A DNA stretch of 64,000 nt. Source: Myxococcales bacterium. Its GTDB lineage: Bacteria; Myxococcota_A; Polyangia; Polyangiales; DASUME01. Position 1 is the stretch's first letter, and every line of letters begins with the position of its first letter. The position numbers and the translations under genes were made by a program. The stretch is from contig JASGJH010000001.1 in assembly GCA_047601445.1 (NCBI GenBank), forward strand, positions 32,001 to 96,000, in the 5' to 3' direction. Below, one piece after another: positions 6,421 to 53,476 of this stretch. Below the pieces are notes generated by a model. The model was not told where the DNA came from, did no database searches, and worked only from the letters and a program-made list of their open reading frames with translations.

Positions 6421-6728
6421 GGTTGCTCCTTAGGAAAGCAGTTGCTTGGCACCGGCAAGTTGCAAACGAACCTGCTCCGGCCCCCTGCAAACCACTCCAA
6501 AAGCCCCCATTGCAAAACAGAGTGAAAAGAGGGCGCGAAATCCGCCCATTCGGAGCCATTTTTTGCAAAATTTTTTCCCGGCGGATCGCAAGGATATTAC
6601 CACCCTCGGCCGAATCAGCCATATCTTATTATGCTGCAATAACTTACAGCACACCAAAAAAAGTTGATTACGTGGCAAGAATCAATCCAGGCCGAAAAAA
6701 TTTTGCAAATTTTTCCCTCCTCAATCAC

Positions 6729-10400: not shown

Positions 10401-13400
10401 CGCTAGCGGCAATCTGACGATCCCGGCCGGCCAAACCACGGGCACGATTGATGTAATGATTATCGACGACAGCCGTGACGAGGATGATGAAACATTCAAG
10501 CTGTTGTTGTCATCTCCGAGCGGAACAACAATCGCGAGCGGTTCCACTGCCGTGGTAGGAACCATTCTCGACGATGACCCAACTCCCTCCGTGATTGTCG
10601 GCGATGTCAACGTGCCGGAAGGGGCGGGGACGGCCAGTGTTACCGTGCATTTGTCGAGTGCCAGCAACAAGACGATCACAGTTAGCTACGTCACTGCCAA
10701 CGGCACTGCCACGGCAGGGGCGGATTATACGGCCGCCAGTAACTTGTTGACCTTTGAGCCGGGCGAAACAACCAAAACGATTCCCGTCAGCATTCTCAAT
10801 GATGCGACCGACGAGGATGACGAATCGTTCACAGTCACGCTCTCATCGCCGACAAACGCGACGTTGGGGCGTGCGACGGGAAACGTCATCATTCTCGATG
10901 ATGATCTATGCGCCGCTGCTGAGCATCAACAACCCCACTACCAACGAGGGGAACGGTACGATGACGTTCACCGTCTCGTTGTCGCAAGCTAGCGCCAAAA
11001 CAATTAGTGTGAATTACGCCACCGCCAATGGTACAGCCACAGCTGGCAGTGATTACACAGCGACCACCGGGGCACTGACATTTAATTCAGGAGATACCAC
11101 AAAAACTTTTACCGTTCCTGTTCTGGAGGATACCGCGGTCGAAACGGCGGAAACGATACGCGTCAATTTGTCCAATGCCACCAATGCGGCGCTCGGCGTA
11201 GCTCAAGGCACAGGCACGATCACGGATAACGACAGCCCGACCCTTAGCATCAACAACGTCACCGTTAACGAAACATCCGGGACCGCCACCTTGACGGTTA
11301 GCCTCTCGGCTCCCAGTGCTTTACCCATCACCGTTCACTGGGCGACAGCGGATGGGACGGCAACGGCCTCCGACGACTATTCCAGCAATTCTGGCAACCT
11401 GACATTCAACCCGGGAGTTACGACGCGAACGATCAACGTGACAATTAATCAGGATGCGGATACTGAGTTGGAGGAAACGTTTAAAGTTGCTCTAAGCAAC
11501 GCCACCAACGCCCAACTCCCGACTGGAACACAAGGTGTTGTCACAATTCGTGCCAATGGTCCCTTGACGGTCGCTTACGCCACCTACACCGTGCCACATG
11601 ACAAGCCGTTTACCTTCAACGTTGCCGCGAATGCCCAAGGCGGCTCCGGTTCGCCCCTGCAATACACTCTGGTAGTGCAGGCTGATCACGGTTCTGTCAT
11701 TGTTGTCTCAGGAACGACGCTCAAATACACGCCACGGCTGCACTATGTGGGTGAAGATTCCTTCGCTTACGATCTGAAAGACGGCACATACGAAATCCCA
11801 TTTGTGCAAGCCGAATTCAACGTCGTGGAAAACGCGCCGGTTGGGTTGCCCGATAGTTATACACTCGGCAAGGGAACAACCTTGTCGGGACAAAACGTCC
11901 TGACCAACGACTCGGACGCGGACAATGACGCGTTGACGGCGGTGCTCGATTCAAGCGTCACGCATGGTACGCTCGCTCTTTGGGCAAACGGTAATTTCAC
12001 TTACACGCCCGCGACAACGCCTGGCCTTTACGAGGGAACCGACCAATTCACCTACCACGTCACCGACGGCATCACATCCAGTGCTCCGGTAACTGTGACT
12101 CTCACGGTCGTGTCTCTTCCTCCCGTGGCGAATGCAGAGCCTGCTCTCAATGTGGTGCATGATCATGCGCTCACAGGCAATGTGCTTTCCAACGATGTCA
12201 GCCCCTACAACAAACCGTTAGTTGCTCAACTGGTGTCATCCGTAGCCACGGGAACTTTGTCACTGCAGCCCAACGGCAACTTTACCTTTACGCCGACTGC
12301 GGGCTTCTTGGGTGACGTGTCGTTCAAATATCGAGTAACCGATGGCAACCTGACATCAGGAATCGCGACGAACGTAATCCATGTTGTGAACCACACGCCC
12401 ACTGCCTTGCCGGATGCATACACCGTCACGCACGACCATGGTCTTGCCGTCTCCTCGGTTTATTTAGGCATTCTCGCCAACGACCCAGACGCTGACTACG
12501 ACACGCTCACGGCCAGCGTGAATCAGACGACGGCGCACGGCAAGCTGAGCCTTAACTCCGATGGCACGTTTACCTACACGCCTGACCCAACCTTCGCCGG
12601 GAGCGATTCGTTTACCTACACCGCCTCGGATGGCGTTTCCGCAAGCAACGTGGCCACGGTCACGATTCAGGTCGTGGAAACTGTGCCGACGGCCAGCAAC
12701 GTCAGCGTGAGCAACTTCCCGCACGACAAAACCCTCGTGCGCACGCTCGCCGCTGCGGAGATCTCGCAAGATGCCGACCTGGATTCCTTGAGCTTCGTGC
12801 TGGTCGAATCCGTCGCGCCCGACAAAGGCATTGTACGACTGCACGCCAATGGCGACATTGCCTACAGTCCTCCTCCCAATTGGACGGGAACCGCTCAATT
12901 CAAGTTCGCTGCCTATGATGGCCTGCAATACAGCCTACCGGCAACCTACACGATCCAAGTCGTGGAACATGCACCAGTGGCAGTGGCCGATTCGTTCACA
13001 GTCGTTCACGACCATTCACTTAACGCCCCATCCGTGCTCAACAACGACACCGATGCGGATGGCTCGGCCTCCGTCGAGCCACTCGCGGCTCGGCTCGTCT
13101 CGGGGGCTGGCGTGCAACATGGATTGTTGGCGTTCAACAGCGATGGCACTTTTGTGTATCAGCCGGCGGCTGGCTATTCCGGTAGCGATGCGTTCCAGTA
13201 CCGTGTTTTCGACGGCCGGCAATATAGTTCTCCGGTCACAGTGACGATTTCCGTTGCGGAACATGCTCCATTGAGCGTTGCAGATTTGGCGGTGGTCGGG
13301 CACGACCGCACCTTGACCGGCAACGTGCTGGCGAATGACACCGGATCAGGATACGGGCGAAACCCTATCGGCCCAACTTGTGAGCGGACCGGCCCATGCC

Positions 13401-31368: not shown

Positions 31369-32723
31369 ATGGCCGCCCTGCAATCCCGGAATGGCAGTTA
31401 CCGGATCGTCTTTCGTTATCAAACCAAGCAACACGCATTCACAATCGGCCAAGTGTCCAAGGACGAGGCGGAGACAAAAGCCGCCCAGGTCGATTACCTG
31501 CTGATGCGGCTAAAGCAGCGTCTGGCATTTCTCCCGCCGGGCATGAACATCGTCGAATACGTCCAGTTCGACGGCAAAGAACTGCCAGCAACACAGCCCG
31601 TTCCCGTCGTCGTCCCGACGCCAGCCGACAAGCTCACGCTTGCCCGACTCCGGGACCGCTACCTCGCCACGCATGAGGCGTCGCTGGAAGCCAACACGGT
31701 CGCGACAATCCGCATGCACTTTCGGCATCTTGCCAGCCGGCTGGGCGAAAGCTTTCTGATCGCTGAGCTGTCGCTGGCCGACCTCCAGCAGTATGTCGAT
31801 CGACGCGCCAAGGCGGCTGGCATCAACGGCCGCAATCTTTCTGCAGTCACCATCCAGAAGGAAATCATTTCGCTTCGCACCGCGTGGAACTGGGGTGTCA
31901 AAATGAAATTGCTGTCCGGCCGTTTTCCCTACGACGGCCTGCGCTATCCCAAGACCACCGAAAAACCTCCGTTCCAAACGTTGGCGGAGATTGATCGACA
32001 AATCAAGGCCGGCGGATTGACCGAAGCTGAGCAGGCAGAATTGTTCGACTCCCTCTATCTTCAACTTCACGAGACTATCACCCTATTAGCTCACGTCCAA
32101 ACCCATGCCAACCATAGATTCATCTACCCAATGTTCTGTGTGGCGGCTCATACCGGGGCCAGGCGGTCGGAGTTGATTCGCATGAAGGTGGCCGACATCG
32201 ACCTCGCCGGACGAATCGTCACGATTCGGGAACGCAAGCGTGTGAAGGGGCAGGCAACAACTCGCCGAGTGCCCATGTCAGCCTTTCTGACCGCCATTCT
32301 CGCACAGTGGCTTGCGGACCATCCCGGCGGACCTTGGCTGTTCTGCCATGAATCGACGATCGCCCATAGCCGAAAACGCAGCTTAACCACCGGTCACTTA
32401 GGTGAGCGGACTCGCCCCAAGAACGGTAACGAGCGAAAGTCCAGGGTCCGCCAAAGGAACCTGCCGACCTCGCGGCTTTGACGAAAGACGAAGCCCACGA
32501 CCATTTCAAACGCACATTAAAGGGAAGTCGCTGGGATGTGCTTCGCGGCTGGCACACGCTCCGGCACAGCTTTATCTCGGCTTGTGCAAGCAGGGGTGTC
32601 GATCAGAGGCTGGTCGAAACGTGGGCAGGTCATATGTCGGCAGACATGAGCCGCCGCTATGCCCACCTCTATCCCAGCACCCAACTGGAAGCGTTGTCGG
32701 GCGTGTTCGACAACGTAGCCTAA
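31369..32723 (+). CDS. Tyrosine integrase (phage-integrase family), one frameshift near 32480
   Basis: HTGARRSEL (R), WHTLRHSF (HxxR) and GH...MSRRYAH (H, Y). Lies immediately downstream of the tRNA. Confidence 0.9.
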
Positions 32724-38831: not shown

Positions 38832-39107
38832 ATGGGCATGGAGCAAGGATTTAGGGAAGAACCGAAGGTTTACCGAGCGAAGGTCGATTCGTCAGGCAGG
38901 ATTCTTCTGCCGCTGGAACTTCGGTCGCAGCACGGAATCGGTCTAGGTGATTCCGTGATTCTCGTCGATGAAGGCAAGGGCGTCGAATTGAAATCGGCGG
39001 CGGATGCCATCCGCGACGCCCAGGAACTCTTCAGGCAAGCGGCACCGCCGGAGCGCGTGCTGTCGGACGAGCTGTTGCAAGAAACGTCGCCAGGAAGCCG
39101 AGCGTGA
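38832..39107 (+). CDS. vapB: AbrB/MazE-family antitoxin
   Basis: KVDSSGRILLPLELR...GIGLGDSV swapped-hairpin motif. Overlaps the PIN gene. Confidence 0.8.
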   Translation: MGMEQGFREEPKVYRAKVDSSGRILLPLELRSQHGIGLGDSVILVDEGKGVELKSAADAIRDAQELFRQAAPPERVLSDELLQETSPGSRA

Positions 39108-39487
39108 GTGAAGTTGCGCTCGACGCCTCAGCGCTACTGGCCTTCTTACGCAAGGAGCCCGGCCAGCAAGTTGTACGAAAGCATCTCGCACAATCGATCA
39201 TCTCCACCGTGAACATCGCAGAGGTACTTGGCAAAGCGATCGAGCGCAAAATTGGCTTGGACGTAGCCATCGCGAAGATTCGTGCGTTGCCCATTACCAT
39301 TGTTCCGTTCGATTTCCAGCAGGCGGCTATCTGCGGCACGATGCGTGAGCCAACGCGGCACTTGGGGCTTTCGCTCGGCGACCGTTCCTGCTTGGCGCTG
39401 GGTTTAGCTCGTAAAATCCCAGTGCTGACGACAGACGAAGAGTGGCTAAAGGCCGATTTGGGCGTCGAAGTTCGGCTGATCCGGTAG
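39104..39487 (+). CDS. vapC: VapC PIN-domain toxin
   Basis: LDASALLA, VNIAEV, LSLGDRSCLALG and VLTTD. Confidence 0.9.
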   Translation: MSEVALDASALLAFLRKEPGQQVVRKHLAQSIISTVNIAEVLGKAIERKIGLDVAIAKIRALPITIVPFDFQQAAICGTMREPTRHLGLSLGDRSCLALGLARKIPVLTTDEEWLKADLGVEVRLIR

Positions 39488-39491
39488 AGCA

Positions 39492-40477
39492 ATGGTTGCA
39501 GATGAATTGATAAGCAATGCCATTGTTCCCGCGCCAGCGAACGCGATCTCCGCCAAGGCCATGTCTCTGCTCATCTGCCTCGCCGGTCCCCGCGCTGAAT
39601 TCGCGTGGGACGAATTTTTTTCCGGCCAGCTCGCCAATCGGCATACCAAAGCTGCCTATCTCTTTGCCGTACGCCGCTTCCTGACTTGGGCAGAGCGGCG
39701 CACTCGGCAGATCAATGACATCACGCCGGGAATGATTGGGATCTATTTTGGCGAGCATCCCGGCAGCCTGCCGACCAAGAAGCTGCATTTGGCAGCCCTC
39801 CGAGCTTTTTTCGACCTACTTGTGAATCGGCACGTCATCATCCTGAATCCTGCAGCCACGGTTCGCACGGGAAAGCACCAGGCGGTCGAAGGTAAGACGC
39901 CGGCAATATCGCCTGATCAAGCACGGGCCTTACTTCAATCGATTAGTGGTCCCTCTCCCACCGCACGCCGCGACCGAGCCATTCTTTCGACGCTCATTTA
40001 TACGGCCGCGCGTGACGGGGCCGTCGCGGCACTACGCATCAAAGACCTCAAATGGGATGGCACGCAGTACAAGTTGCGGTTCCTCGAAAAAGGCGGCAAG
40101 GAGCGGTTGATTCCAGTCCGTTACAATCTTCAACTCGACTTGCTGCAATATTTGGAGTGTTTTGTTTGGCAGGACGAACCGAGCGATGCACCGCTCTTTC
40201 GATCCGTGGCCGGCCGCACCGGTCAACTCACGAAGCGCCCATTCGGAATGTGGATATTTGCCGAATGATGAAACGGCGGCTACGCGAAGCCAAGCTGCCT
40301 ATGGACCTGTCGCCCCACTCTTTCCGCGCCGCGACCGTCACGGATTTGTTGTCGCAAGGCGTGCCGCTGGAAGATGTTCAATACCTTGCCGGGCACAGCG
40401 ATCCAAGAACAACACGGCTCTATGACCGTCGGCAACAACAGGTCACGCGGAATACGGTGGATAGGATTTCGATCTAG
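39492..40477 (+). CDS. Tyrosine recombinase (resolvase-like, XerC/D superfamily), one frameshift
   Basis: RDRAILSTLIYTAAR, EKGGK, SPHSFRA and LAGHSDPRTTRLYD. Confidence 0.9.
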
Positions 40478-40496
40478 CTGGTCGGCGCACCCCGTG

Positions 40497-40620
40497 CGTC
40501 CGACAAACGGTCGTTTTTCGGATGCATTGCCTGCCAGGATCGTATTTGAACCGTAACCGTCCAGAAATTGCGTCCAGAATCAGCCACTGTCCAGAAACAA
40601 TTGAAGACAGTTTTTGGATG
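40497..40620. promoter_or_regulatory. Candidate recombination (res) site of the adjacent tyrosine recombinase
   Basis: 11-6-11 core CGTCCGACAAA-CGGTCG-TTTTTCGGATG plus GTCCAGAA direct repeats at 40559, 40572 and 40589. Confidence 0.55.
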
Positions 40621-40809
40621 CTAAATCGCACGGCTGGCAAGAAATCGCCGTCGATACAATTATTCTACCGCAGCGACTTGCCCCGAAGAATCAAGTTACT
40701 GACGCACCTTGTTCGGTCGGCCACGTCCTGCAATAGCCAGCTAAGCTTGCCTTGAGTCTCTCGATTAATCGATCCGAATACGATTACGCAGTGAAATGCC
40801 CAGCACATC

Positions 40810-40919
40810 AAAAAAAAGAGCCGTCCTCTTACGATGACGGCTGGTTGCTCCGTAGAGCAGTGCCTGCGAATGTTTCTTCTTGTTGCGAAAAGAATTCGCG
40901 GGCTGAGATTGGTTACACT
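40810..40919 (-). ncRNA. tracrRNA
   Basis: Anti-repeat AGTGTAACCAATCTCAGCCCGCGA-ATTCTTT-TCGCAAC (40919-40882), downstream hairpins, and terminator AGCCGTC/GACGGCT followed by T8. A promoter TTGCAT-N16-TAGAAT (40954-40927) places the start at the anti-repeat. Confidence 0.85.
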
Positions 40920-40994
40920 GCTCGTGATTCTACATGAATCGCGAGCAGATGCAACCAAATACATAAAACACAAAAGGATCCGGAGGCTGAGGGT

Positions 40995-41064
40995 AGTGCA
41001 ACCAATCCCAGCCTGCGACCAGTCCGCAATTTCCGGATTACGGACGATTAACTCGTCTCGCAAC
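40995..41064 (-). ncRNA. Solitary CRISPR repeat with an upstream guide-like segment (scaRNA/crRNA-like RNA, or 5' part of a long tracrRNA)
   Basis: 40995-41030 matches the array repeat at 30/36 positions. It is in crRNA orientation on the tracrRNA strand, about 4.9 kb from the array. Confidence 0.65.
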
Positions 41065-41371
41065 TAAGAAATTATGTGTACCGGATTACGACTACTGTAC
41101 ATTGACTTGACACATCGTACAATGGGCCCTGAAGTTGGGGGACATGAAAGCGGCGTCGAGATGCATTGCATCAAGTCCGTCAGCAGTTTGACTGGGGTCG
41201 CAACCCAGTCAAACTGTGAGCGTCCATAGCCTGTCGGAACGGACTCCAACACCGTTCAGCCGCACATGTCTCTCCTTTTAAGAGGATAGCATGCTGGTTT
41301 CAGTTCAGGTATCTCGCGACTCATGCGATCAAGGAGCGCAGCGTCGGCCAAATTAATGTGACGAGGAAATC

Positions 41372-44300
41372 ATGGGCGATTTTGTTTTGGGTCTCGACAT
41401 AGGCTCGAACTCGATTGGCGGCGCACTCGTTGACGAGTCAAATCAAAAGATTCTCGCGAGCTTCGTTCGCATCTTTCCCGAAGGCGTTGATCGCGATCAG
41501 ACGGGTGGTGAAGTTTCAAAGAGTGTGGCCCGCAGAATTGCCCGCGGGATGCGACGCCAGATTGCTCGTCGAGCCAAACGAAAAAAACTGCTACGAACAG
41601 CACTAGCAAAGGCGGAGTTGCTTCCGGCTGATCCTGCAGAGCAACGAAATCTTGATCAACTCAACCCATACGAGTTGCGGCAGAAAGGATTGACCTCGAA
41701 GCTCACGCCGTATGAATTCGGGCGAGTGCTCGTGCATCTCAACCAGCGACGCGGTTTTTTGTCGAACCGCAAAGCTGACCGGGGTAACAAGAAAGAAGCC
41801 TCGGTAATGCTTCAAGCCATCAGCGATTTAGAGGCAGAGATCAAGACAGCAGGGCATGAAACACTTGGCGAGCATTTGGCGGCGTTATACCTAGCCGCCC
41901 CGACCGAGCGAATTCGTGGCAAGCATACTCGCCGCGAAATGCTGCTGGCCGAATTCGAGGCATTGTGGAAAGAGCAGAGCAAGCATCACCCAAAGCTGCT
42001 TACGAACCAATTGAAGTTCGGCAGTCGCGGGCAAGCCAGCTATCCTCGCCCGCATGAACGAGTTGGCGGCGCTGATCAATGGCTCGCTGATTTTGGACTG
42101 TTCGGCATCATCTTCTTTCAGCGGCCGATGTATTGGCCAAAATCGGTGATCGGACAGTGTGAATTGAACCCGAAGATGAAGCGCTGCCCGCGGGCAGATC
42201 GCGCAGCGCAGCGATTTCGTGTTTTGAATGAAGTAAACAATTTACGAATCATTGCGTGCGACGGAGAAATTAAAGAGCTAACGTCGCAGCAGCGAGAGAA
42301 GTTGCTCAAATTGTTGAGCCAAAAGGAATCCGTAACATTCGATGACATCCGCAAGAAATTAGGGCTGCTCGAAAACGACGGTTTCAATCTGGAGGAAGGT
42401 CAGCGACGAAAATTGCTAGGAATGCCAACCGACGCAACACTGGCCAGCAAGCGATTTTTTGGCCCGAAATGGCATGAACAGCCTGACGAATGGAAGGATC
42501 ACGTCGTTCGTTCACTCATTCATGACGACGAAGCCAAATTTCTAAAAAGCTGCCAGTGAAGAGTTCGAGATCGACTCTGAAGTGGCGGAAAAACTGCTCG
42601 ATGCCTCGTTGCCTGAAGGCTATGCCAGCTACGGACGCGAAACGATTGAACGCCTCTTACCACACATAGAAAAGGGACTTCCCTTGATGTCTCGCGACGG
42701 CCAGCCGTGCGCGATCCGGTTGGCTAACTTTGTTCCCGTGTTCGAACGAATGGTGAAGAAGGGGCAGTTTTTGCCGCAACCGCCTGAAATTACCAATCCG
42801 CTCGTTCGACAAGCACTGTTTGAAGTCAGGAAACTGATTAACACGGTCCTTCGCGAGTATGGGAAGCCACGTGCAGTTCATATCGAGTTAGCCCGCGAGG
42901 TGAAAGGCTCAGGAGAGCAGCGAGTTGCCCGCACGCGAGATATGCGCGATCGAGAGAGGAAACGAGAAGAGGCCGCAAAGCGGATTGTAGAACATGGCGA
43001 GAAGCCTACGCGGGGAAAGATCGAGCTTTATCTTCTATGGCAAGAGCAGGGCGAAGATTGCATGTATTCAGGGAGGAAGATTGGGATTCGACAACTCTTC
43101 GGCGGCGAAGTGAACATTGACCACATCTTGCCCTATTCCAAGAGTCTTGACGATTCGCTCATGAACAAAGTCGTTTGTTTTCGCAAAGAAAACGATGACA
43201 AAGGCCAACAGACGGTTCATGAGTGGCTGGCCTCTACGAATCCCCAAAAATACGAGCAGATTCTCCAGCGGGCAGCGAAGCTACCAATCGATATTCGAAA
43301 TCGAAGTGCGCAAAAGCTGGCGCAGAAGACTTGTGAGCTCGAACAGTTTATCAGTCGACAATTGACTGACACGGCCTACATCACGGCTGCTGTTGTCGAA
43401 TATCTCAAAGTGCTCGATTTGGATGTTCTCGGATCGAAAGGGCAGTTGACCGCTGAACTGCGTCACCAATGGGGCTTAAACGACGTGCTTCGTGATGATG
43501 GCTTGAATGTCAAAAATCGTGAAGATCATCGACATCATGCCGTGGATGCCATCGTGATTGCCCTAACCGACCGCAAACGGTTGCAACGACTTGCAAAATG
43601 TAGAGGCAATGATGAGTTGACGCCCCCTGATACCGGAAAGTGGAAGTCGTTCCGTGCGGATGTCGAAGCCGCAATCAACGGAATCAAGGTATCTCATCGA
43701 GTGCAAAGAAAGGTTTCCGGCGCATTGCATGAGGAAACAATCTATGGACCAACGCCGAATGTGGGTGAATTTGTCTGTCGTAAGCCGCTGCTTTCGCTAA
43801 CAGGGCCGATGATTGCTGATATTCGCGATCCCGAAGTGAAACGAATTGTGATCGAGCGATTGGTGAAGTGTGGCATTGATCACGAGGCTGTCTCGAAGAT
43901 TCCCAAAGAAGTTTGGAATGAGCCGCTATATATGACTCGTAAGCTTGGCCGCATCGCTTCGGCACCAGCAGTCATTCAGAAGGTGCGATTGGTTCGTAAA
44001 GATGAGACGATTCGGCGGCTTCGCGGTGAGGGACAGTTTATTAAGCCTGGCAGCAATCACCATGTTTGTATCTTTGAAATGACAGACGAAAAAGGAAAGG
44101 TGCGACGGGAATCCGTTTGGGTCTCCATGCTGGAAGCAGTGCGACGCATCAAAAGCGGCGACGAAATCATCCAGCGAGTTCATCCATCGCGGCCCGAGGC
44201 GAGGTTCGTCATGTCGATCAGCCGGGGCGAAATGTTCCTAGGCACTTTCAAGGGTCAAGAAAGATTGGTTTGGTTCAGAACGGGAGCTTCAACTCAAGGG

Positions 44301-44435
44301 CAGCTATATTTTGTCGATCATACCGACGCAAGGCCGGACAAAACTGCCACGAAATTCGTTGCCACAGCAAACTCATTGAAAGCTCGCAAAGTAACCGTTG
44401 ATCCGTTAGGCCGTATCCGTTGGGCTAATGATTAA
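41372..44435 (+). CDS. cas9: Type II-C Cas9 (~1,020 aa), one apparent frameshift near 42550
   Basis: RuvC-I LGLDIGSNSIG, Arg-rich bridge helix, HLNQRRGF, RuvC-II HIELARE, HNH DHILPYS...NKVVC...N, and RuvC-III HHAVDA. Confidence 0.97.
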
Positions 44436-44550
44436 GATTTCTCACGGCAAGACTGGTAATTGCCGTTCGCTCGAATTAGCGTGGCGCGAGTAGGAAATGA
44501 CCTCTCGCGCCACGGATGGTCCTTCGCTCCTTGTTTGCGAGGACCGCCGA

Positions 44551-45516
44551 GTGATTAAACGCACCATCGAGATTTCGCAGCAGCCGGCTCATGTGACGGT
44601 TCAGCATTCGCAATTGGTGCTGAAGCGCGAGGGGAGTATTGTTGGCCAAGCCCCGTGCGAGGATGTGGGGGTGGTGCTGGTCGATCAGCCACAGGTGACC
44701 TATTCGCACGCGGCCCTGGCGGCTTTGGCCGAGTCAGACGCGGTGCTGGTGGTGTGCGGGCGGAATCATTTACCAGTCGCAGTGCTGCTGCCGCTGGCTG
44801 ATCACACGCAGGTGGTGTGGCGGATCAACGAGCAGCTGGCGATCAGCCGCCCTCTGAAGAAGCAACTGTGGCGGCAGCTCATTCAGGCCAAAATTCGGGG
44901 GCAGGCGAGGAATCTAGCCGGGGGAAGTCCTGCGCGATCGAAGCTGCTCGATTATGCTCGGCAGGTCCGCTCCGGCGATCCAACTAACCTGGAGGCGCAA
45001 GCGGCCCGCGTCTATTGGCAGAACTGGCTGCCGGAAGAAGTGTTTCGCCGCGATGCGGATGCCAGTGGTCTGAACGCTCTTTTGAACTATGGCTATGCGG
45101 TGATGCGGGCGGCTGTGGCGAGGGCCTTGGTCGCTGCGGGATTGATGCCATCGGTAGGTTTGCATCACAGCAACCGGAGCAATGCGTTTTGTTTGGCCGA
45201 CGATGTGCTAGAGCCGTTACGGCCGCTAGTCGATGACCGGGCGCGGGAGCTTTATCGCCAAGGCTACGATCAGCTCGATGTCGAGGCGAAGGCGGGGCTA
45301 CTCAAGCTACTGGCCGAAGACGTGCGACTGCGTCGGGCGGACAGCACGACGGAAACGGGGCCGCTAATGGTGGTGCTGCACCGCTATATCGCCTCGCTCG
45401 TGCACTGCTTTCAAGGCGAGACGAAACGCCTAGAGATACCGGAGATGGTCGATTCCCCGGAGATCGACCATCAGCCGCAAGAGGCAACGCCCGAATCTCT
45501 AGTCCCCAGCCCCTGA
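44551..45516 (+). CDS. cas1: Type II Cas1
   Basis: NLEAQAARVYW, NALLNYGYAV and GLHHSNRSNAFCLADDVLEPLRP. GTG start at 44551 (alternative 44497). Confidence 0.95.
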   Translation: MIKRTIEISQQPAHVTVQHSQLVLKREGSIVGQAPCEDVGVVLVDQPQVTYSHAALAALAESDAVLVVCGRNHLPVAVLLPLADHTQVVWRINEQLAISRPLKKQLWRQLIQAKIRGQARNLAGGSPARSKLLDYARQVRSGDPTNLEAQAARVYWQNWLPEEVFRRDADASGLNALLNYGYAVMRAAVARALVAAGLMPSVGLHHSNRSNAFCLADDVLEPLRPLVDDRARELYRQGYDQLDVEAKAGLLKLLAEDVRLRRADSTTETGPLMVVLHRYIASLVHCFQGETKRLEIPEMVDSPEIDHQPQEATPESLVPSP

Positions 45517-45528
45517 CCCCAGCTCATC

Positions 45529-45857
45529 GTGCTTATAAGCGGATACCGTTGCATGTGGGTTCTGGCCATGTTCGACCTACCGGTTGATACGAAGAAGTGC
45601 GCAAAGCATACGCCCAGTTCCGCAAAGGACTGCTCAAGGACGGCTTTACGAAGATGCAGTTTTCGGTCTATGTTCGCCATTGCCCGAGCGAGGAGAACGC
45701 TACGGTACATATGGCTCGCGTGGAAAAAATGGTGCCTCCCGATGGCGAAGTTCGGATCATTACCCTTACCGACAAACAGTTCGAGCGGATGCGCATCTTT
45801 TGGGGAAAAATGCGCAAGGCAGTCGCCACACCGCCGCCGCAGCTTGAACTTTTTTAG
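45529..45857 (+). CDS. cas2: Cas2 (frameshift near 45597)
   Basis: YRCMWVLAMFDLPV followed by FRKGLLKDGFTKMQFSVYVR...QLELF. Confidence 0.95.
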
Positions 45858-45907
45858 CCACGGCGCGATCGTAAGTTGTTGCCAATCAGTCGGTTGGGAG
45901 AGGATCG

Positions 45908-48900
45908 AGTGTAACCAACCTCAGCCCGCGACCAATCCGCAACCGCAGCACGACGCTGTGCGCTGTCGATAAGAGTGTAACCAACCTCAGCCCGCGACCA
46001 ATCCGCAACCGGCTGCCGCGATCTTGATCTAGCAACGGAAGTGTAACCAACCTCAGCCCGCGACCAATCCGCAACGCAATGTGGCAAGACGGCGAACGGT
46101 TGCGAAGTGTAACCAACCTCAGCCCGCGACCAATCCGCAACACAGCGAACGCTCGTTCGCCTGCCGGCAGCAGTGTAACCAACCTCAGCCCGCGACCAAT
46201 CCGCAACCCGGGAACCGGTTTCAACATCCGAGGCTAAAGTGTAACCAACCTCAGCCCGCCGACCAATCCGCAACAGGCAGATGATGACAGCCAGACGCGA
46301 GGCAAGTGTAACCAACCTCAGCCCGCGACCAATCCGCAACTTCACAAGAATGGCGAACTGCATACTTCTCAGTGTAACCAACCTCAGCCCGCGACCAATC
46401 CGCAACTGTCTGTGACTTCTACAGAACAATTGGTGAAGTGTAACCAACCTCAGCCCGCGACCAATCCGCAACCCTTAGATTGCTCTTCGGAATTCTCTTG
46501 GGAGTGTAACCAACCTCAGCCCGCGACCAATCCGCAACTACAACGAAAACTGCACCATGAAGGGCCGGAGTGTAACCAACCTCAGCCCGCGACCAATCCG
46601 CAACACCGAACAGGCGTGGCGATTTAACGCCCGTAGTGTAACCAACCTCAGCCCGCGACCAATCCGCAACGAGTCTCGCAATTGGGAGCTTATCTCCCTG
46701 AGTGTAACCAACCTCAGCCCGCGACCAATCCGCAACTTACCCAACCGGCTGGCCATCGCACGGCTCAGTGTAACCAACCTCAGCCCGCGACCAATCCGCA
46801 ACTCTCCATCCATGCCAGTGCTCCATTAGGTGAGTGTAACCAACCTCAGCCCCGACCAATCCGCAACGTTTCGATTGATTTAACGAATCCGCTCATGAGT
46901 GTAACCAACCTCAGCCCGCGACCAATCCGCAACAGACGTTGACGCGAGCTTGATCGAAGCCGTAGTGTAACCAACCTCAGCCCGCGACCAATCCGCAACC
47001 TAGCAACAGCGCCATATCCTAATCAAGCCAGTGTAACCAACCTCAGCCCGCGACCAATCCGCAACTTCGTCATCTGACAGCATCAATCGACGGACAGTGT
47101 AACCAACCTCAGCCCGCGACCAATCCGCAACGCACAGTGCGCAGAATGTCTTCGTTCTGTCAGTGTAACCAACCTCAGCCCGCGACCAATCCGCAACTAA
47201 GCCATACCGTCCGAGGTCTTCGTAGCTAGTGTAACCAACCTCAGCCCGCGACCAATCCGCAACAAGGGTTGGTGTACTTATTCCAATCTGTTGTAGTGTA
47301 ACCAACCTCAGCCCGCGACCAATCCGCAACATTAGCAGGTTAGGTAAACCCTAGTAGCTAAGTGTAACCAACCTCAGCCCGCGACCAATCCGCAACGTGC
47401 TGGGTCTCTCCGATCTTTTGAAAAATAGTGTAACCAACCTCAGCCCGCGACCAATCCGCAACGCTCAACGTCACATGGACGCGAGAGACGCCAGTGTAAC
47501 CAACCTCAGCCCGCGACCAATCCGCAACGGTTGTGGTTCCGAATGAGACAGAAGAACTAGTGTAACCAACCTCAGCCCGCGACCAATCCGCAACTCAGGG
47601 TTGGCGATGGAAGAAGGCACAAGGAGTGTAACCAACCTCAGCCCGCGACCAATCCGCAACGCTGGACGAGTGGGTTGCTTTTACATTTTCAGTGTAACCA
47701 ACCTCAGCCCGCGACCAATCCGCAACAGCCTATGAATCTGTAAAAGCCGTTATGTAAGTGTAACCAACCTCAGCCCGCGACCAATCCGCAACTTAGCTTC
47801 GCTGGTTTCAATTAGCTGCTCGAGTGTAACCAACCTCAGCCCGCGACCAATCCGCAACGGCAGCTAACATCTCAACCGCCTCGATCGAAGTGTAACCAAC
47901 CTCAGCCCGCGACCAATCCGCAACGCTGCAACATGTTTTTCCTCAACGTGGTGCAGTGTAACCAACCTCAGCCCGCGACCAATCCGCAACGGCGAGCGGC
48001 AAATGCCGAACGAGCTTCGCAGTGTAACCAACCTCAGCCCGCGACCAATCCGCAACTGGGCCGCCGGCCGATTGCCAGGCTACGAAAGTGTAACCAACCT
48101 CAGCCCGCGACCAATCCGCAACTCGGGTGAAGTCGGTCGCATGAATCCGGTCAGTGTAACCAACCTCAGCCCGCGACCAATCCGCAACCGGCATTGCGTG
48201 CGCGAGACGGTGCGAAACAGTGTAACCAACCTCAGCCCGCGACCAATCCGCAACTGTAATGGCGTCGTACAAAGTTCCTGCTCAAGTGTAACCAACCTCA
48301 GCCCGCGACCAATCCGCAACTGCGAAGATTGCCAGTGCTGACCTGAAAAAGTGTAACCAACCTCAGCCCGCGACCAATCCGCAACGTGGCTGCCGGCTCT
48401 GGCGTCTGCGATTCGAGTGTAACCAACCTCAGCCCGCGACCAATCCGCAACTATACGGTCAAAAACAAGGGCGCAGGCCTAAAGTGTAACCAACCTCAGC
48501 CCGCGACCAATCCGCAACTTGTGCTGGCCGCGGCGCTTTGTCGTCCTAGAGTGTAACCAACCTCAGCCCGCGACCAATCCGCAACCGTGGATAGCGAACT
48601 TTGGCCAGCAGCCTCAGTGTAACCAACCTCAGCCCGCGACCAATCCGCAACATCACTGTGGAGTCTATTGGACCGGTCCTGAGTGTAACCAACCTCAGCC
48701 CGCGACCAATCCGCAACTGTTTCGTGACGCTGCGGATCCCGGTTGCCAGTGTAACCAACCTCAGCCCGCGACCAATCCGCAACAACGTGTCAAAGCTCAT
48801 CGCGCGATCTCGAAGTGTAACCAACCTCAGCCCGCGACCAATCCGCAACTGGGTCTTAGCGATGCCAGCAAACAACTGAAGTGTAACCAACCTCAGCCCG

Positions 48901-51900
48901 CGACCAATCCGCAACTATAGTGATACACATGACGCACCGAGTTGGAGTGTAACCAACCTCAGCCCGCGACCAATCCGCAACGGGCGCTGTGGGCGCGATA
49001 CTGCTAGCGCCAGTGTAACCAACCTCAGCCCGCGACCAATCCGCAACTGTTGAGTTGAAGGGTAATTATGTCAGTCAAGTGTAACCAACCTCAGCCCGCG
49101 ACCAATCCGCAACTTCCCAGGACAATCCACCAAAGGTTAATCCAGTGTAACCAACCTCAGCCCGCGACCAATCCGCAACAGTTTCTACAGGATCAGAAGC
49201 AGAGACAACAGTGTAACCAACCTCAGCCCGCGACCAATCCGCAACTTCAGTCGCAGGCTGCTAGTAGCTCTAGGGAGTGTAACCAACCTCAGCCCGCGAC
49301 CAATCCGCAACTCTGGAATTTATAGTAGCCTCCATATTGTAGTGTAACCAACCTCAGCCCGCGACCAATCCGCAACTCTGCGTGAAGCATGGGCGAAAGT
49401 TCGCGAAGTGTAACCAACCTCAGCCCGCGACCAATCCGCAACTCTCTAGGAGGTCGGCAGGATGGCAAAATAGTGTAACCAACCTCAGCCCGCGACCAAT
49501 CCGCAACGGTCAGCAATTTGACCCTTTGCTGATCTTAAGTGTAACCAACCTCAGCCCGCGACCAATCCGCAACAGCGATCTGTCAGGATTGACCGTGATC
49601 GGCAGTGTAACCAACCTCAGCCCGCGACCAATCCGCAACGTCGGAGTTGTGCATACCAACGGCCTCGAAAGTGTAACCAACCTCAGCCCGCGACCAATCC
49701 GCAACCCGCTTCAAAGATGACAGCGAACGGCGCATAGTGTAACCAACCTCAGCCCGCGACCAATCCGCAACGGTGTACGCGGTTGGGGCTTGGTTGGTGG
49801 GAGTGTAACCAACCTCAGCCCGCGACCAATCCGCAACCGTGGCGGTTGACGGCGTTGACGTGACTGAAGTGTAACCAACCTCAGCCCGCGACCAATCCGC
49901 AACACCACCCCCACCGCCGCCTCACCCACGCCAAGTGTAACCAACCTCAGCCCGCGACCAATCCGCAACCGTCTTCCGGCTGGTCGTATTGATCCGAGTA
50001 GTGTAACCAACCTCAGCCCGCGACCAATCCGCAACAGCGCGGTAATGCTAATGAGCGCGGATACAAGTGTAACCAACCTCAGCCCGCGACCAATCCGCAA
50101 CAGCGGTGCGGTTACAGCCAATCTGCGCATGAGTGTAACCAACCTCAGCCCGCGACCAATCCGCAACTGTTACCGAATTGGCGAGAACTTGCCAAACAGT
50201 GTAACCAACCTCAGCCCGCGACCAATCCGCAACTCCATTTACCTGCTACGGACTCTTCCCATAGTGTAACCAACCTCAGCCCGCGACCAATCCGCAACGG
50301 TGAGTATGTCGCCTGCGTTGAGCTCGGCAGTGTAACCAACCTCAGCCCGCGACCAATCCGCAACGCGATCAGTAGGAGGTATTGGGCCAAAGGTAGTGTA
50401 ACCAACCTCAGCCCGCGACCAATCCGCAACCCAAGCGGCTCTTGATAGTGGAGAGACCGTAGTGTAACCAACCTCAGCCCGCGACCAATCCGCAACATGC
50501 ATCTAAAGTTCAAAAACATAAATCAAAGTGTAACCAACCTCAGCCCGCGACCAATCCGCAACAGCGGGATGCGCCACGCCCACGGTCCGCTGAGTGTAAC
50601 CAACCTCAGCCCGCGACCAATCCGCAACGGGTAATAAACCGTCAGACGCAGCGATTAAGTGTAACCAACCTCAGCCCGCGACCAATCCGCAACTGTTGGC
50701 TCAACTACAGGTGCAACGCCTGTAGTGTAACCAACCTCAGCCCGCGACCAATCCGCAACGAGCGGCCATGCCGGCAAACTCGTAGCTCAAGTGTAACCAA
50801 CCTCAGCCCGCGACCAATCCGCAACTACAACTTAACGCATTTCAATTCACAACTCAGTGTAACCAACCTCAGCCCGCGACCAATCCGCAACGCGAAGCCG
50901 GTTGGCCAGTCTAGCTCTATTAGTGTAACCAACCTCAGCCCGCGACCAATCCGCAACTGTCGGCTCCGTAGGGGCAAACCGAGACGGAGTGTAACCAACC
51001 TCAGCCCGCGACCAATCCGCAACGCTGAGGATGCGTATCTGTTTCAGTGCCGAGTGTAACCAACCTCAGCCCGCGACCAATCCGCAACGCAGCATGGTTG
51101 TCGTCAGCGCCGGATAGGAGTGTAACCAACCTCAGCCCGCGACCAATCCGCAACCGCGGCCAAAGCATAGAATGTTTCCTGTGCAGTGTAACCAACCTCA
51201 GCCCGCGACCAATCCGCAACCCCCTCGCGTCCCTTGGCCAACATCGCCTCAGTGTAACCAACCTCAGCCCGCGACCAATCCGCAACTCGCGCGTTGCTGC
51301 TGGACAAGATTTGTTTAGTGTAACCAACCTCAGCCCGCGACCAATCCGCAACTTGTATCATGAACACAATTTGAAGTTTCAAGTGTAACCAACCTCAGCC
51401 CGCGACCAATCCGCAACACCAACACTGACTTAACTACCAAAGGATAAAGTGTAACCAACCTCAGCCCGCGACCAATCCGCAACTCCGGGGTCCAGTTGTG
51501 GTCATGCGCCAGCAGTGTAACCAACCTCAGCCCGCGACCAATCCGCAACGTTCGTTCGTCGTGGCCAATTCGTGGTAGTAGTGTAACCAACCTCAGCCCG
51601 CGACCAATCCGCAACCGATTGAACCTTGCCACTCTTGGGCAAAGCAGTGTAACCAACCTCAGCCCGCGACCAATCCGCAACTGATTGGTCGTCATCAACC
51701 CACATTTTCAAGTGTAACCAACCTCAGCCCGCGACCAATCCGCAACGAGTGATGAGTTGATCCCGTAAGTCGCGAAAGTGTAACCAACCTCAGCCCGCGA
51801 CCAATCCGCAACGCAATTGGACTGGCCCTGCTGTTTCGTTTTAGTGTAACCAACCTCAGCCCGCGACCAATCCGCAACAACGCAGGCTACGTCCTCTACG

Positions 51901-53102
51901 ACACCGGCAGTGTAACCAACCTCAGCCCGCGACCAATCCGCAACCTGAATTAGCTTCAGGAATTAGACAACTAAGTGTAACCAACCTCAGCCCGCGACCA
52001 ATCCGCAACAAACCAGGTACAGGTAAAAAGTATCTGTCAAGTGTAACCAACCTCAGCCCGCGACCAATCCGCAACGTAAAGTAAATAGGGTACAACTCAA
52101 AATCTAGTGTAACCAACCTCAGCCCGCGACCAATCCGCAACGCATGACGCCAGCGATGTCGTGATAGGTCGAGTGTAACCAACCTCAGCCCGCGACCAAT
52201 CCGCAACACCTCTGGGACTGTATCGCCAGAGGGTTTTAGTGTAACCAACCTCAGCCCGCGACCAATCCGCAACTCCATGAGCACAGGCCCCGACTTCGGC
52301 TGTAGTGTAACCAACCTCAGCCCGCGACCAATCCGCAACACCTCTGGGACTGTATCGCCAGAGGGTTTTAGTGTAACCAACCTCAGCCCGCGACCAATCC
52401 GCAACTCCATGAGCACAGGCCCCGACTTCGGCTGTAGTGTAACCAACCTCAGCCCGCGACCAATCCGCAACGGCACGGATGCTATGGAACTTCGCTGGTA
52501 CAGTGTAACCAACCTCAGCCCGCGACCAATCCGCAACATGGAGCCGTATTTGAAACGCGGCAAATTGAGTGTAACCAACCTCAGCCCGCGACCAATCCGC
52601 AACGGCGCGGCTCAAGGCGATGGCATTGGCCGAAGTGTAACCAACCTCAGCCCGCGACCAATCCGCAACAGGATCAATTAGAGCAGCGCACCCGCTCCTA
52701 GTGTAACCAACCTCAGCCCGCGACCAATCCGCAACAATCGAACTGCGGGACCGCATCTATTTGAAAGTGTAACCAACCTCAGCCCGCGACCAATCCGCAA
52801 CCATTAGCTCGCGGTCCAGGGCTTGGTGATGAGTGTAACCAACCTCAGCCCGCGACCAATCCGCAACGGCAGCTAACTAACATGCTTCACCCACGCCAGT
52901 GTAACCAACCTCAGCCCGCGACCAATCCGCAACCCCACGATGCTTTCCCAGCACGTCGCTTGAAGTGTAACCAACCTCAGCCCGCGACCAATCCGCAACA
53001 GCCAACCTGGCTTGATCGCCGCTTAATGCAGTGTAACCAACCTCAGCCCGCGACCAATCCGCAACGTGCATGGGGTGCTAGGCACGACGTATGGTAGTGT
53101 AA
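45908..53102 (-). CRISPR. Type II-C CRISPR array: ~109 full 36-bp repeats, ~30-bp spacers, truncated terminal repeat
   Basis: Repeat AGTGTAACCAACCTCAGCCCGCGACCAATCCGCAAC on + (crRNA sense GTTGCGGATTGGTCGCGGGCTGAGGTTGGTTACACT). First copy at 45908, last full copy at 53030, AGTGTAA remnant at 53096. The count is estimated from the 66-bp period and the strand from tracrRNA complementarity. Confidence 0.99.
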
Positions 53103-53476
53103 TTGCACTTCGCACTTCCGTTCGACCGGGTGCATTCCAGGCTTCGCGTTAGCTGCGGTCGCTCAAGCCGACGGACTAGCATCCCCTTCCCGCCCCCTGG
53201 TGCTTCCGGCTGCTTGCCGGCAACGGTCACCTGCGGCGACGTGAATTTCTTGGGAGTGCGGGGGGAGCATCCCCCAGGCCGTCAAGGCAACCGCTGCGCT
53301 ACGGCCGGCGCGGTCCCTCCCAATCTTCCGCGGCTAGCGCCTTGTGCAGACCGGTGGCCCCCCACGCCGGCCGTCCTTGACTGCCTGCCCCCTCTGTGTT
53401 TGGGCCTTCGTCCCCCTCGCCCAAAGGAATGTGCGAGGGGCACTTTCCATTTCATTCCAAGAGGAGGAACCAGACC

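Follow-up and report, generated by a model that had tools for sequence, protein, structure and literature searches.

The 64,000-nt stretch of a Myxococcales bacterium analyzed here (the window; positions 32,001 to 96,000 of contig JASGJH010000001.1, assembly GCA_047601445.1) contains a compact type II-C CRISPR-Cas locus composed of cas9, cas1, a probable cas2, a gene for the trans-activating CRISPR RNA (tracrRNA), and a CRISPR array. Between the tracrRNA gene and cas9 lies a solitary CRISPR repeat adjoined by a guide-like segment, and it is this element, a candidate guide RNA gene aimed at the promoter region of cas9, that is considered here (Table 1). The gene order cas9-cas1-cas2, the absence of csn2 and cas4, a short Cas9 (of the ∼1000- to 1100-aa class), the tracrRNA, and the 36-nt repeats were all found, and together they denote subtype II-C in the classification of CRISPR systems. 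Matches to the Pfam families Cas9_a, HNH_4, RuvC_III, and Cas1 were obtained, and no open reading frame (ORF) of at least 80 aa was seen between cas2 and the array, except for frames inside the array or overlapping cas2. The 107 identical 36-nt repeats of the array span 45908-53065, and their minus-strand reading starts GTTGCGGATTGG. The sense of the array repeat, the anti-repeat, and the terminator of the tracrRNA (a terminal hairpin and U-run, fold z −3.76) all lie on the minus strand, which indicates that the CRISPR RNAs (crRNAs) are made from this strand.

The intergenic spacer between the tracrRNA and cas9 measures 453 nt, or 456 nt when counted from the anti-repeat. It is unique in the genome and belongs to no repeat family that we could find, and an Rfam scan of 40000-42000 returned only two weak microRNA-family matches attributable to chance. 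Read on the minus strand, the spacer presents in order a CATAAT box, a 30-nt guide, the solitary repeat, a hairpin followed by UUUUGUGUUUU, and the promoter boxes of the tracrRNA. An initial annotation, produced by a model from the letters of the DNA, had placed the guide at 41060-41031, the repeat at 41030-40995, a 75-nt linker after it, and then the anti-repeat and terminator of the tracrRNA. This order was confirmed, with the anti-repeat from 40919 and the terminator to ∼40810, as was the identity of 30/36 between solitary and array repeats with six transitions, both by script and by direct inspection of the sequence.

The solitary repeat is the sole copy outside the array within 9 substitutions in the whole 9.5-Mb genome. 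In crRNA numbering, its six changes are 1 G>A, 9 T>C, 17 G>A, 23 A>G, 25 G>A, and 32 A>G. On pairing with the anti-repeat, changes 23 and 32 give G-U pairs and change 25 turns a G-U into an A-U pair, change 9 falls in an internal loop, and changes 1 and 17 break pairs. The computed duplex energy is −49.1 kcal/mol versus −60.3 kcal/mol for the array repeat. Directly after the guide stands AUUGCGGA, which keeps 7 of the 8 lower-stem pairs of the array repeat; the accessible part of Workman et al. gives such a lower-stem segment after the guide as a mark of the RNA tracr-L. Likewise, an array-sense homologue outside the array that is complementary to the tracrRNA, as found here, is what Guzina et al. 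(2018), in the portion available, expect of a small RNA associated with CRISPR (scaRNA).

It had also been proposed that at least three of the changes preserve pairing with the tracrRNA. This is true by our own pairing and carries no evidential weight, being about what chance gives for transitions; with 3 of 5 stem positions kept, which is not significant, the idea that pairing-preserving transitions are a sign of selection was dropped. Three of the six differences (plus-strand positions 12, 14, and 20) are states found in the array repeats of related loci and read as ancestral. Moreover, a 96-nt contig from a freshwater-sediment metagenome carries two copies that are ∼35/36 identical to the solitary variant (over 40994-41029), 30 nt apart in an array-like arrangement, and the variant appears to be a working repeat type in another organism. 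The shared ancestral states and this double copy indicate that the differences are not the product of decay in place, and that the transitions are no evidence of selection.

The end of the guide proximal to the protospacer-adjacent motif (PAM) is at 41031, and its predicted start, judging from the −10 box, is near 41064. As the initial annotation had noticed, the repeat-proximal part of the guide recurs nearby: CCGGATTACG at 41033-41042 has an exact second copy at 41081-41090, and the agreement is 11/12 over 41079-41090. Outside these 12 nt, guide and site agree at only 3 of 18 positions. The flank where the PAM would lie, which in the tracr-L definition of Workman et al. immediately follows the target, reads CACATAAT. 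Hairpin aside, the 345 nt from the solitary repeat to cas9 contain no exact repeat of 9 nt or more other than this candidate site. The tracr-L match described in the accessible text of Workman et al. (at least 11 bp, one mismatch allowed) is reached here only by using the allowed mismatch.

The frequency of such a match by chance was estimated in several ways. Over 724 tested positions, an anchored 11/12 match was obtained for 93 of 50,000 shuffled guides, 90 of 50,000 random genomic 30-mers, and none of 104 array spacers. Taken alone, the match in the window, which ∼0.2% of random 30-mers also attain, is only suggestive. The genome has a local-repeat background of its own, where 2,736 of 200,000 random 12-mers (∼1.4%) have such a neighbor. 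Genome wide, the 12 nt of the guide have no 12/12 site, and of the eight sites at 11/12 one is the local site. Two other origins were considered and dropped: the site as a degenerate upstream repeat (∼11/36 matches, with a loose GGT(T)ACAC resemblance only) and the guide as an array leader (no similarity to either flank of the main array).

The decisive evidence for the pairing of guide and site is, in our judgment, its recurrence in related loci. The survey set comprised 43 loci of the same Cas9 clade (the window, L011, L012, L034, and L044 to L082), including 40 of the 45 loci from the order Pirellulales; at least 600 nt upstream of cas9 was available in 41 of the 43. A solitary repeat in crRNA sense was found upstream of cas9 in six of them, namely, the window, L049, L050, L067, L071, and L072. 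In most of the 37 module-less loci, the anti-repeat lies 50-140 nt from cas9. The six loci were chosen by the solitary repeat alone, and their guides were inspected afterwards. They were scored by the longest exact run starting at most 4 nt from the repeat, with both strands considered from the guide to cas9. The run is 10 nt in the window (reached by 43 of 20,000 random 30-mers and 48 of 20,000 shuffled guides), 9 nt in L049 (245 of 20,000 random 30-mers), 13 nt in L050 (1 of 20,000), 17 nt in L067, and 20 nt in L072 (0 of 20,000 for each of the last two). L071 fails this score, which had been fixed in advance, with a run of 6 that 7,652 of 20,000 random 30-mers reach; its copy is 12 nt long and sits at an offset of 8 from the solitary repeat. 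None of the spacers from the loci's own arrays attained the score (0/95 in the window and 0/64, 0/31, and 0/25 in other loci).

Each locus has just one or two exact repeats of 9 nt or longer in the stretch from the solitary repeat to cas9. In all six loci, one repeat copy begins 1-8 nt from the solitary repeat, the remaining repeats being local hairpins. If placement is taken as uniform, the chances of the individual loci multiply to 1.6e-7, a figure that overstates independence because L067, L071, and L072 are kin, leaving four to five independent cases. The copied sequence is different in each of the six loci and unrelated between them. The guides of the kin L067 and L071 are homologous, and at five positions the two loci differ alike in guide and site. 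The lack of a guide/target match in homologous loci had been named in advance as an outcome by which the proposal would fall. The proposal withstood this test: among the 42 other loci, 5 carry the module, each with a repeat-adjacent copy. On the Cas9 tree (a quick tree, with the full search unfinished and three loci with short matches excluded), the six module loci are scattered, and the starred branches force at least five gains or losses.

Two layouts were observed. L049 and L050 have the second copy in inverted orientation, beginning exactly where guide and repeat meet, within a promoter that faces cas9. Three clean promoter-like sites were seen in L049, versus 0.2 expected: one for the guide (TTGACT-17-TAGGAT), one for the tracrRNA (TTGACA-16-TACAAT), and one toward cas9 (TTGACT-17-TATACT), whose −35 the site abuts. 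In L050, the site is inside TTGACG-16-GATATT. In the window, L067, L071, and L072, the copy is on the same strand and is found just upstream of, or within, the guide's own promoter, upstream of its −35 in the case of L067.

The promoter elements of the window fit this picture in part. The CATAAT box at 41076-41071 was verified, and its geometry is alike in relatives, namely L049 (TAGGAT) and L072 (CATAAT), in which the 30-nt guide begins 10-11 nt after the end of the −10. On the plus strand, TTGACA (41107) and TACAAT (41118) had been taken for a promoter; the boxes are 5 nt apart, which is impossible for a single promoter. The alternative listed in Table 1 is weak by itself (one promoter-like site in the region versus 0.8 expected), and the candidate site ends 6 nt from the −35 of this sole plus-strand promoter-like site. 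With a predicted cas9 transcript start near 41130, the site would span roughly −51 to −40 and thus border on the −40 to +20 interval stated in a 2026 preprint (10.64898/2026.06.01.729453). Relative to the predicted start of the guide itself, it would lie at about −26 to −15. The boxes of the tracrRNA promoter are positioned to start the RNA at the anti-repeat, and the L049 counterpart, TTGACA-16-TACAAT, scores 11/12. A 12/13 palindrome, CTGCTCGCGATTC/GAATCACGAGCAG (40918-40948), overlaps the −10 and start region of this promoter; it may serve as an operator or form a hairpin within a read-through transcript.

The terminator-like structure after the solitary repeat is formed by pairing of AGGCTGGG (41014-41007) to CCCTCAGCCT (40993-40984) and of TCCGGAT (40984-40978) to the guide seed ATCCGGA (41038-41032), and TTTTGTGTTTT (40975-40965) comes next. 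The fold predicted beforehand, AGGCUGGG/CCUCAGCCU together with AUCCGGA/UCCGGAU ahead of UUUUGUGUUUU, proved to be the minimum-energy structure, and 3 of 200 shuffles were as good. A simple terminator scan raised no flag on the structure at 40965-41014. A perfect hairpin is also present in the presumed cas9 leader of the window (Table 1), and L049 (12 bp) and L067 (10 bp) have hairpins of their own at comparable places, 195-290 nt from the solitary repeat.

TABLE 1 Coordinates of the features discussed, in window numbering unless a locus is named
Feature	Position	Strand, sequence	Basis or remark
tracrRNA	40810-40921	−	Anti-repeat 40919-40883, scaffold hairpins, intrinsic terminator, T8 run ∼40817-40810
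Candidate tracrRNA promoter	40927-40954	−, TTGCAT(40954-40949)-16-TAGAAT(40932-40927)	By eye; missed by scan, −35 3/6
Terminator-like structure after solitary repeat	40965-41014	−	Minimum-energy fold, z −2.55
Solitary CRISPR repeat	40995-41030	−, crRNA sense, ATTGCGGACTGG...GCACT	30/36 to array repeat
Guide-like segment	41031-41064	−	30 nt beside repeat, probably ∼34 nt from start near 41064
−10-like box of the guide's own promoter, also PAM-side flank	41071-41076	−, CATAAT	Direct sequence reading
Candidate Cas9 binding site	41079-41090	−, CGTAATCCGGTA	11/12 to last 12 nt of guide
Candidate cas9 promoter	41096-41123	+, TGTACA-16-TACAAT	Scan, 9/12
13-bp perfect hairpin, no U-run	41184-41216	+, CAGTTTGACTGGG/CCCAGTCAAACTG	Presumed cas9 5′ leader
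cas9 (II-C)	41372-44435	+	Two frames, 41372-42559 and 42546/42582-44435
cas1	44497-45516	+	Pfam
Candidate cas2, 147-aa ORF	45529-45972	+	No Pfam match; named by position only
CRISPR array	45908-53131	crRNA on −	107 identical repeats, 2 with indels, degenerate terminal repeat
hicB-like/hicA region	L050:6133-6363, L067:5123-5565, L071:5303-5775, L072:10731-11186	Guide's strand	Pfam

From these data, the stretch 40995-41064 would be the gene of a scaRNA/tracr-L-type guide RNA that, together with the tracrRNA, parks Cas9 on the divergent guide/cas9 promoter region, a reading to which we assign a probability of about 0.58. Its support consists of the anatomy of the element, its capacity to pair with the tracrRNA, the anchored match, and the recurrence with different sequences; transcription, the RNA ends, the loading of Cas9, PAM compatibility, and repression are what we infer beyond it. 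The suggestion that a tracr-L- or scaRNA-like module is aimed at the cas9 promoter region stands as far as sequence reaches; the mis-spaced plus-strand boxes, the argument from pairing-preserving transitions, and the planctomycete host are parts of the initial reading that are not supported.

In the proposed mechanism, the minus strand would be transcribed from the promoter with CATAAT as its −10, yielding an RNA that consists of a guide of ∼30-34 nt and the solitary repeat and that probably ends at the hairpin and U-tract before the tracrRNA promoter; some read-through into the tracrRNA may occur. The solitary repeat would pair with the anti-repeat of the tracrRNA, and the duplex would load into Cas9. 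Then 10-11 nt of the repeat-proximal guide would pair with the site, which lies between the −10 of the guide and the −35 of the divergent cas9 promoter. A match this short would result in binding without cutting, and Cas9 seated on the bidirectional promoter region would damp its own synthesis and that of the guide, the outcome being negative feedback on both. The hairpin and U-tract, the tracrRNA's own promoter, and the position of the tracrRNA ∼630-660 nt away in L050, L071, and L072 make a separate small RNA the likelier form, rather than one long RNA. This distance, together with the failure to find a tracrRNA upstream in L067, favors a trans-acting scaRNA as the general mode, with read-through possible in the window and L049.

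Several observations weigh against this interpretation. Guide and site are mismatched at position 2 from the PAM side, and in all four same-strand loci the 2-7 nt nearest to the repeat are disrupted, by this mismatch in the window and by a 1-nt extra base in the site in L067, L071, and L072. PAM-proximal mismatches are where Cas9 binding suffers most. Matches of 17-20 nt, as in L067 and L072, exceed those of known regulatory guides, and gene conversion between the guide and site copies could mimic their covariation. The repeat of the window is the most diverged of the six (30/36 versus 33-34/36 in L049, L050, and L072) and the only one altered within its first 14 nt; the pair between its first base and the tracrRNA is lost, and the lower-stem duplex formed by these 14 nt is weakened (−8.2 versus −12.9 kcal/mol). 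The guide promoter has a −10 without a good −35, and a consensus scan flags neither promoter nor terminator; a start and a terminator of its own are the boundaries that Guzina et al. (2018) ascribe to a scaRNA. As assembled, cas9 is split by one extra base in the A5 run at 42544-42548.

The loci closest to the window that could be read carry no module (L044 and L045, at most 63% identical; L012, 57%; L011, 52%), and in L011/L016 (52%) and L012 (57%) the tracrRNA lies 87-88 nt from cas9 with no solitary repeat. Contigs of three metagenome runs contain a stretch 95-100% identical to 40835-40924, and these tracrRNA-bearing contigs diverge upstream of the tracrRNA. A search for protospacers of the array spacers revealed no full-length match in the organism's own genome. 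For the whole array, only chance pieces were obtained from phage and plasmid collections (E of at least 0.2). The genomes of 200 relatives, with two candidates scored per genome, likewise gave only chance pieces. In IMG/VR there were no matches for the three leader-distal spacers (3 of 106) searched as exact 23-mers. Solved Cas9 structures cover the HNH/RuvC part and not the PAM-interacting end, the PDB matches stopping at residue 338-360 of the 617-aa C-terminal part of Cas9. No sequencing run contained more than 7% of the sampled words of the locus. Four runs mapped onto the window gave short contigs of relatives only, and a metatranscriptome contig over the tracrRNA region is no proof of transcription. 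The copy in the window is to be regarded as an unproven candidate for an active one.

This leads to the question of whether the module is the same and the copy decaying or already inactive, with a mini-guide that once worked here or in the donor. We consider this unlikely. The divergence of the repeat from its own array, the changes in its first 14 nt, a seed mismatch in a match of just 10-11 nt, and the frameshifted cas9 would all suit an inactive copy, and Workman et al., in the accessible part, report tr_L-negative loci in which the element persists but has mismatches in its seed. However, the PAM-proximal disruption is common to the four same-strand loci and persists between L067 and L071, where guide and site otherwise co-vary, so it looks maintained rather than decayed. 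The 107 array repeats are identical. Apart from the one extra base, cas9 is collinear with intact relatives of 1001-1022 aa (1000-1022 aa for relatives overall). Moreover, rpoB in the same single-contig assembly is also split by one extra base, inside a conserved domain (G000:C1:2770900-2771130), whereas RpoB is one protein of ∼1380 aa in every relative. Indel errors are thus present in the assembly, and an assembly error is as likely as a real lesion in cas9.

It appears improbable that the active form is a read-through RNA running from ∼41064 into the tracrRNA, that is, a tracr-L-type natural single guide that folds on itself and needs no partner. Guide and repeat share a strand with the tracrRNA at a distance of 75 nt, and in the fold of the 259-nt RNA the solitary repeat is paired to the anti-repeat (−110 kcal/mol, z −7.28), but a strong fold follows by construction from the complementarity of repeat and anti-repeat. 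L049, with its repeat 45 nt from the anti-repeat and no minus-strand terminator flagged by the scan between them, would allow read-through, and in the 2026 preprint tracr-L is interpreted as a scaRNA placed upstream of the tracrRNA and is said to occur in II-C systems. Against this, the hairpin and U-tract separate the repeat from the tracrRNA promoter in the window, the tracrRNA has promoter-like boxes of its own, positioned for a start at the anti-repeat, in both the window and L049, and in L050, L071, and L072 the hicBA genes described below and ∼630-660 nt intervene before the tracrRNA. With the tracrRNA distant in these relatives or not found upstream, as in L067, the family as a whole would have to act in trans. 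A reading without any Cas9 guiding is doubtful at best: the repeat would be the leftover of a rearrangement or of a second array, or a decoy for tracrRNA or Cas9, and the copy would be a local duplication, an operator, or a promoter element. Local repeats are ∼7 times commoner in this genome than in random sequence, and the ∼35/36 double copy in the metagenome shows the solitary variant to be a real repeat type elsewhere, which could have arrived by recombination. Phage solitary repeats acting as decoys are known (Camara-Wilpert 2023, as far as the accessible part goes), but a pure decoy needs no matching site. The same-strand copy does sit in an operon promoter, with HicA and/or HicB-like proteins encoded in L050, L067, L071, and L072, where operators are common, and the PAM-proximal disruptions are a poor fit to Cas9 binding. 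Yet duplication or an operator leaves unexplained why 6 of 6 copies abut the guide side within 1-8 nt, and why the inverted copies of L049 and L050 start exactly at the junction in a cas9-facing promoter. The HicB-like ORFs are of 67-82 aa with no match to a DNA-binding domain, and the window and L049 have no hicBA at all.

The initial annotation had written of a planctomycete II-C system. RpoB places the host in the Myxococcota, its closest named relatives being Sandaracinaceae, Polyangiales, and Myxococcales (70-75% identical), and only the CRISPR system is planctomycete-like. Among 400 other genomes from the order of the host, 9 of them from its genus, none was found to have a Cas9 of this type, and the Cas9s in 400 genomes of its phylum are at most 40% identical. 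The Cas9 clade is common in Pirellulales, occurring in 45 of 401 genomes of the order to which the Pirellulales metagenome-assembled genome (MAG) L014 belongs. This distribution indicates that the II-C locus is of planctomycete type and was acquired horizontally by the myxobacterium. Closer Cas9s are known as proteins (P0002, 87%; P0003, 80%; P0004, 78%). Directly upstream of the tracrRNA are a MazE-like/PIN toxin-antitoxin pair (38832-39487) and, between this pair and the tracrRNA, a weak and probably partial tyrosine-integrase ORF (39492-40268). In the array, two repeats bear indels (46208-46304 and 46803-46897), and a degenerate terminal repeat, read by eye, follows the last spacer at ∼53096-53131; its place at the cas-distal end suggests that spacers are added on the cas2-proximal side. 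In the Planctomycetota MAG L012, one array repeat is split by an insertion of ∼1.2 kb with a 374-aa ORF (11086-12332), presumably an insertion sequence, and cas9 is read in three frames, probably through long-read errors.

In L050, L067, L071, and L072, small ORFs follow the solitary repeat on the same strand and precede the tracrRNA where one was found. HicA_toxin matches above the Pfam cutoff were obtained in L050, L067, and L071 (E 1e-17 to 1e-18), and sub-threshold HicB-like or DUF1902 matches were obtained in L067, L071, and L072; the second ORF of L072 matched no family. In the HicB-like ORFs, the match is to the N-terminal HicB/DUF1902-like part only. The second copy of the guide is in the promoter region of the hic unit in L067, L071, and L072, and in the cas9-facing promoter in L050. 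The same truncated 19-nt repeat, GTTGCGGATTGGTTACACT (made up of the first 12 and the last 7 nt), is present in L050 (oriented 6653-6671) and L072 (oriented ∼6636-6654) at a distance of 30-45 nt downstream from the solitary repeat; it may be a second mini-guide or the promoter of the next gene.

Tentatively, and with the odds below even, the solitary-repeat guide may be the leader of a Cas9-policed operon in the Pirellulales-type II-C clade, a Cas9 counterpart of CreTA, where class 1 mini-arrays control toxin-antitoxin cargo. The window would then be a cargo-less form that feeds back only on guide and cas9, and the conserved bulge or mismatch would be a built-in device. If so, a toxin-antitoxin operon would be held down by Cas9, tracrRNA, and scaRNA together and would be released once Cas9 is lost or is inhibited, as by anti-CRISPRs. 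With a 1-nt bulge or mismatch located 2-4 nt from the PAM side, complementarity of 12-20 nt would be possible without self-cleavage. Among the literature matches listed for HicA and tracrRNA, none was relevant by title.

The element resembles several known systems. In the accessible part of Workman et al. (10.1101/2020.05.21.102756), the guide of tracr-L from Streptococcus pyogenes (II-A) matches 11-15 bp in the tracrRNA-cas9 intergenic region. As described there, a repeat-like segment and a short guide stand upstream of a short tracrRNA on the same strand and divergent from cas9, the distribution among relatives is patchy, and the intergenic region is longer where the element is present, here 456 nt versus ∼50-140 nt in most module-less loci. 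The 2026 preprint, titled [quoted passage not shown] built its search on 80 characterized sgRNA groups and, in the part accessible, includes Cas9-regulating scaRNAs that likewise combine a guide and a repeat-like element near cas9, tracrRNA pairing, and a cas9 promoter target. Its 32 scaRNAs, as far as that part shows, lie downstream of the array or in the cas9 5′ untranslated region, unlike the element in the window; the validated case is of type II-A (Lactobacillus hominis), and a PAM match was required there. The window differs from tracr-L in being of type II-C, in having a terminator-like hairpin and a separate tracrRNA promoter between repeat and tracrRNA, and in having its site on the flank of the guide's own promoter with a PAM-proximal mismatch.

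In the scaRNA of Francisella novicida (II-B), reported by Ratner et al. in 2019, a degenerate repeat is said to pair with the tracrRNA and a short guide to repress without cleavage. That scaRNA reportedly represses a lipoprotein regulon and not cas9, whereas the only good match of the guide in the window is local. The scaRNA of Neisseria meningitidis (II-C; PMC13431127, accessible part) acts posttranscriptionally on efeO mRNA and largely without Cas9. With the RNAs of Francisella and Neisseria, the latter as far as that part shows, the present candidate shares its position outside the array and its linkage to a type II locus; theirs are bound by Cas9.

In mini-arrays and the CreR RNA of CreTA in types I and V-A, the spacer of a degenerate CRISPR unit partly matches the promoter of cas genes or of toxin-antitoxin cargo (Shmakov et al. 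2023; 10.1101/2023.03.10.532045; accessible parts). The type I-D mini-arrays occur there in three states, namely, cargo with mini-array, mini-array only, and empty. Three states are also seen here, where L050, L067, L071, and L072 have hicA and/or hicB-like genes, the window and L049 have none, and 37 loci are empty. As far as those sources are accessible, mini-array and CreR systems use Cascade or Cas12a and no tracrRNA, unlike the present case, and type II mini-arrays are only counted, at ∼6% of loci. The window has no second repeat flanking the guide, as a mini-array would: the 36 nt upstream of the guide are ∼11/36 identical to the repeat. L050 and L072, in contrast, do have the second, truncated 19-nt repeat.

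The kind of element described here is thus already known from tracr-L in II-A, scaRNA in II-B and II-C, mini-arrays in types I and V-A, and the Cas9-regulating scaRNAs, and no new category is needed. The window and its five relatives add an environmental II-C clade with compact Cas9s (∼1000-1020 aa), in which the covariation of guide and site lets the circuit be read from the sequence by itself. These natural guide/site pairs could define what II-C Cas9s need for binding without cutting, and they offer a testable link between Cas9 and HicBA toxin-antitoxin systems. The window would also be an example of such a circuit moving with its system into a distant host, a myxobacterium.

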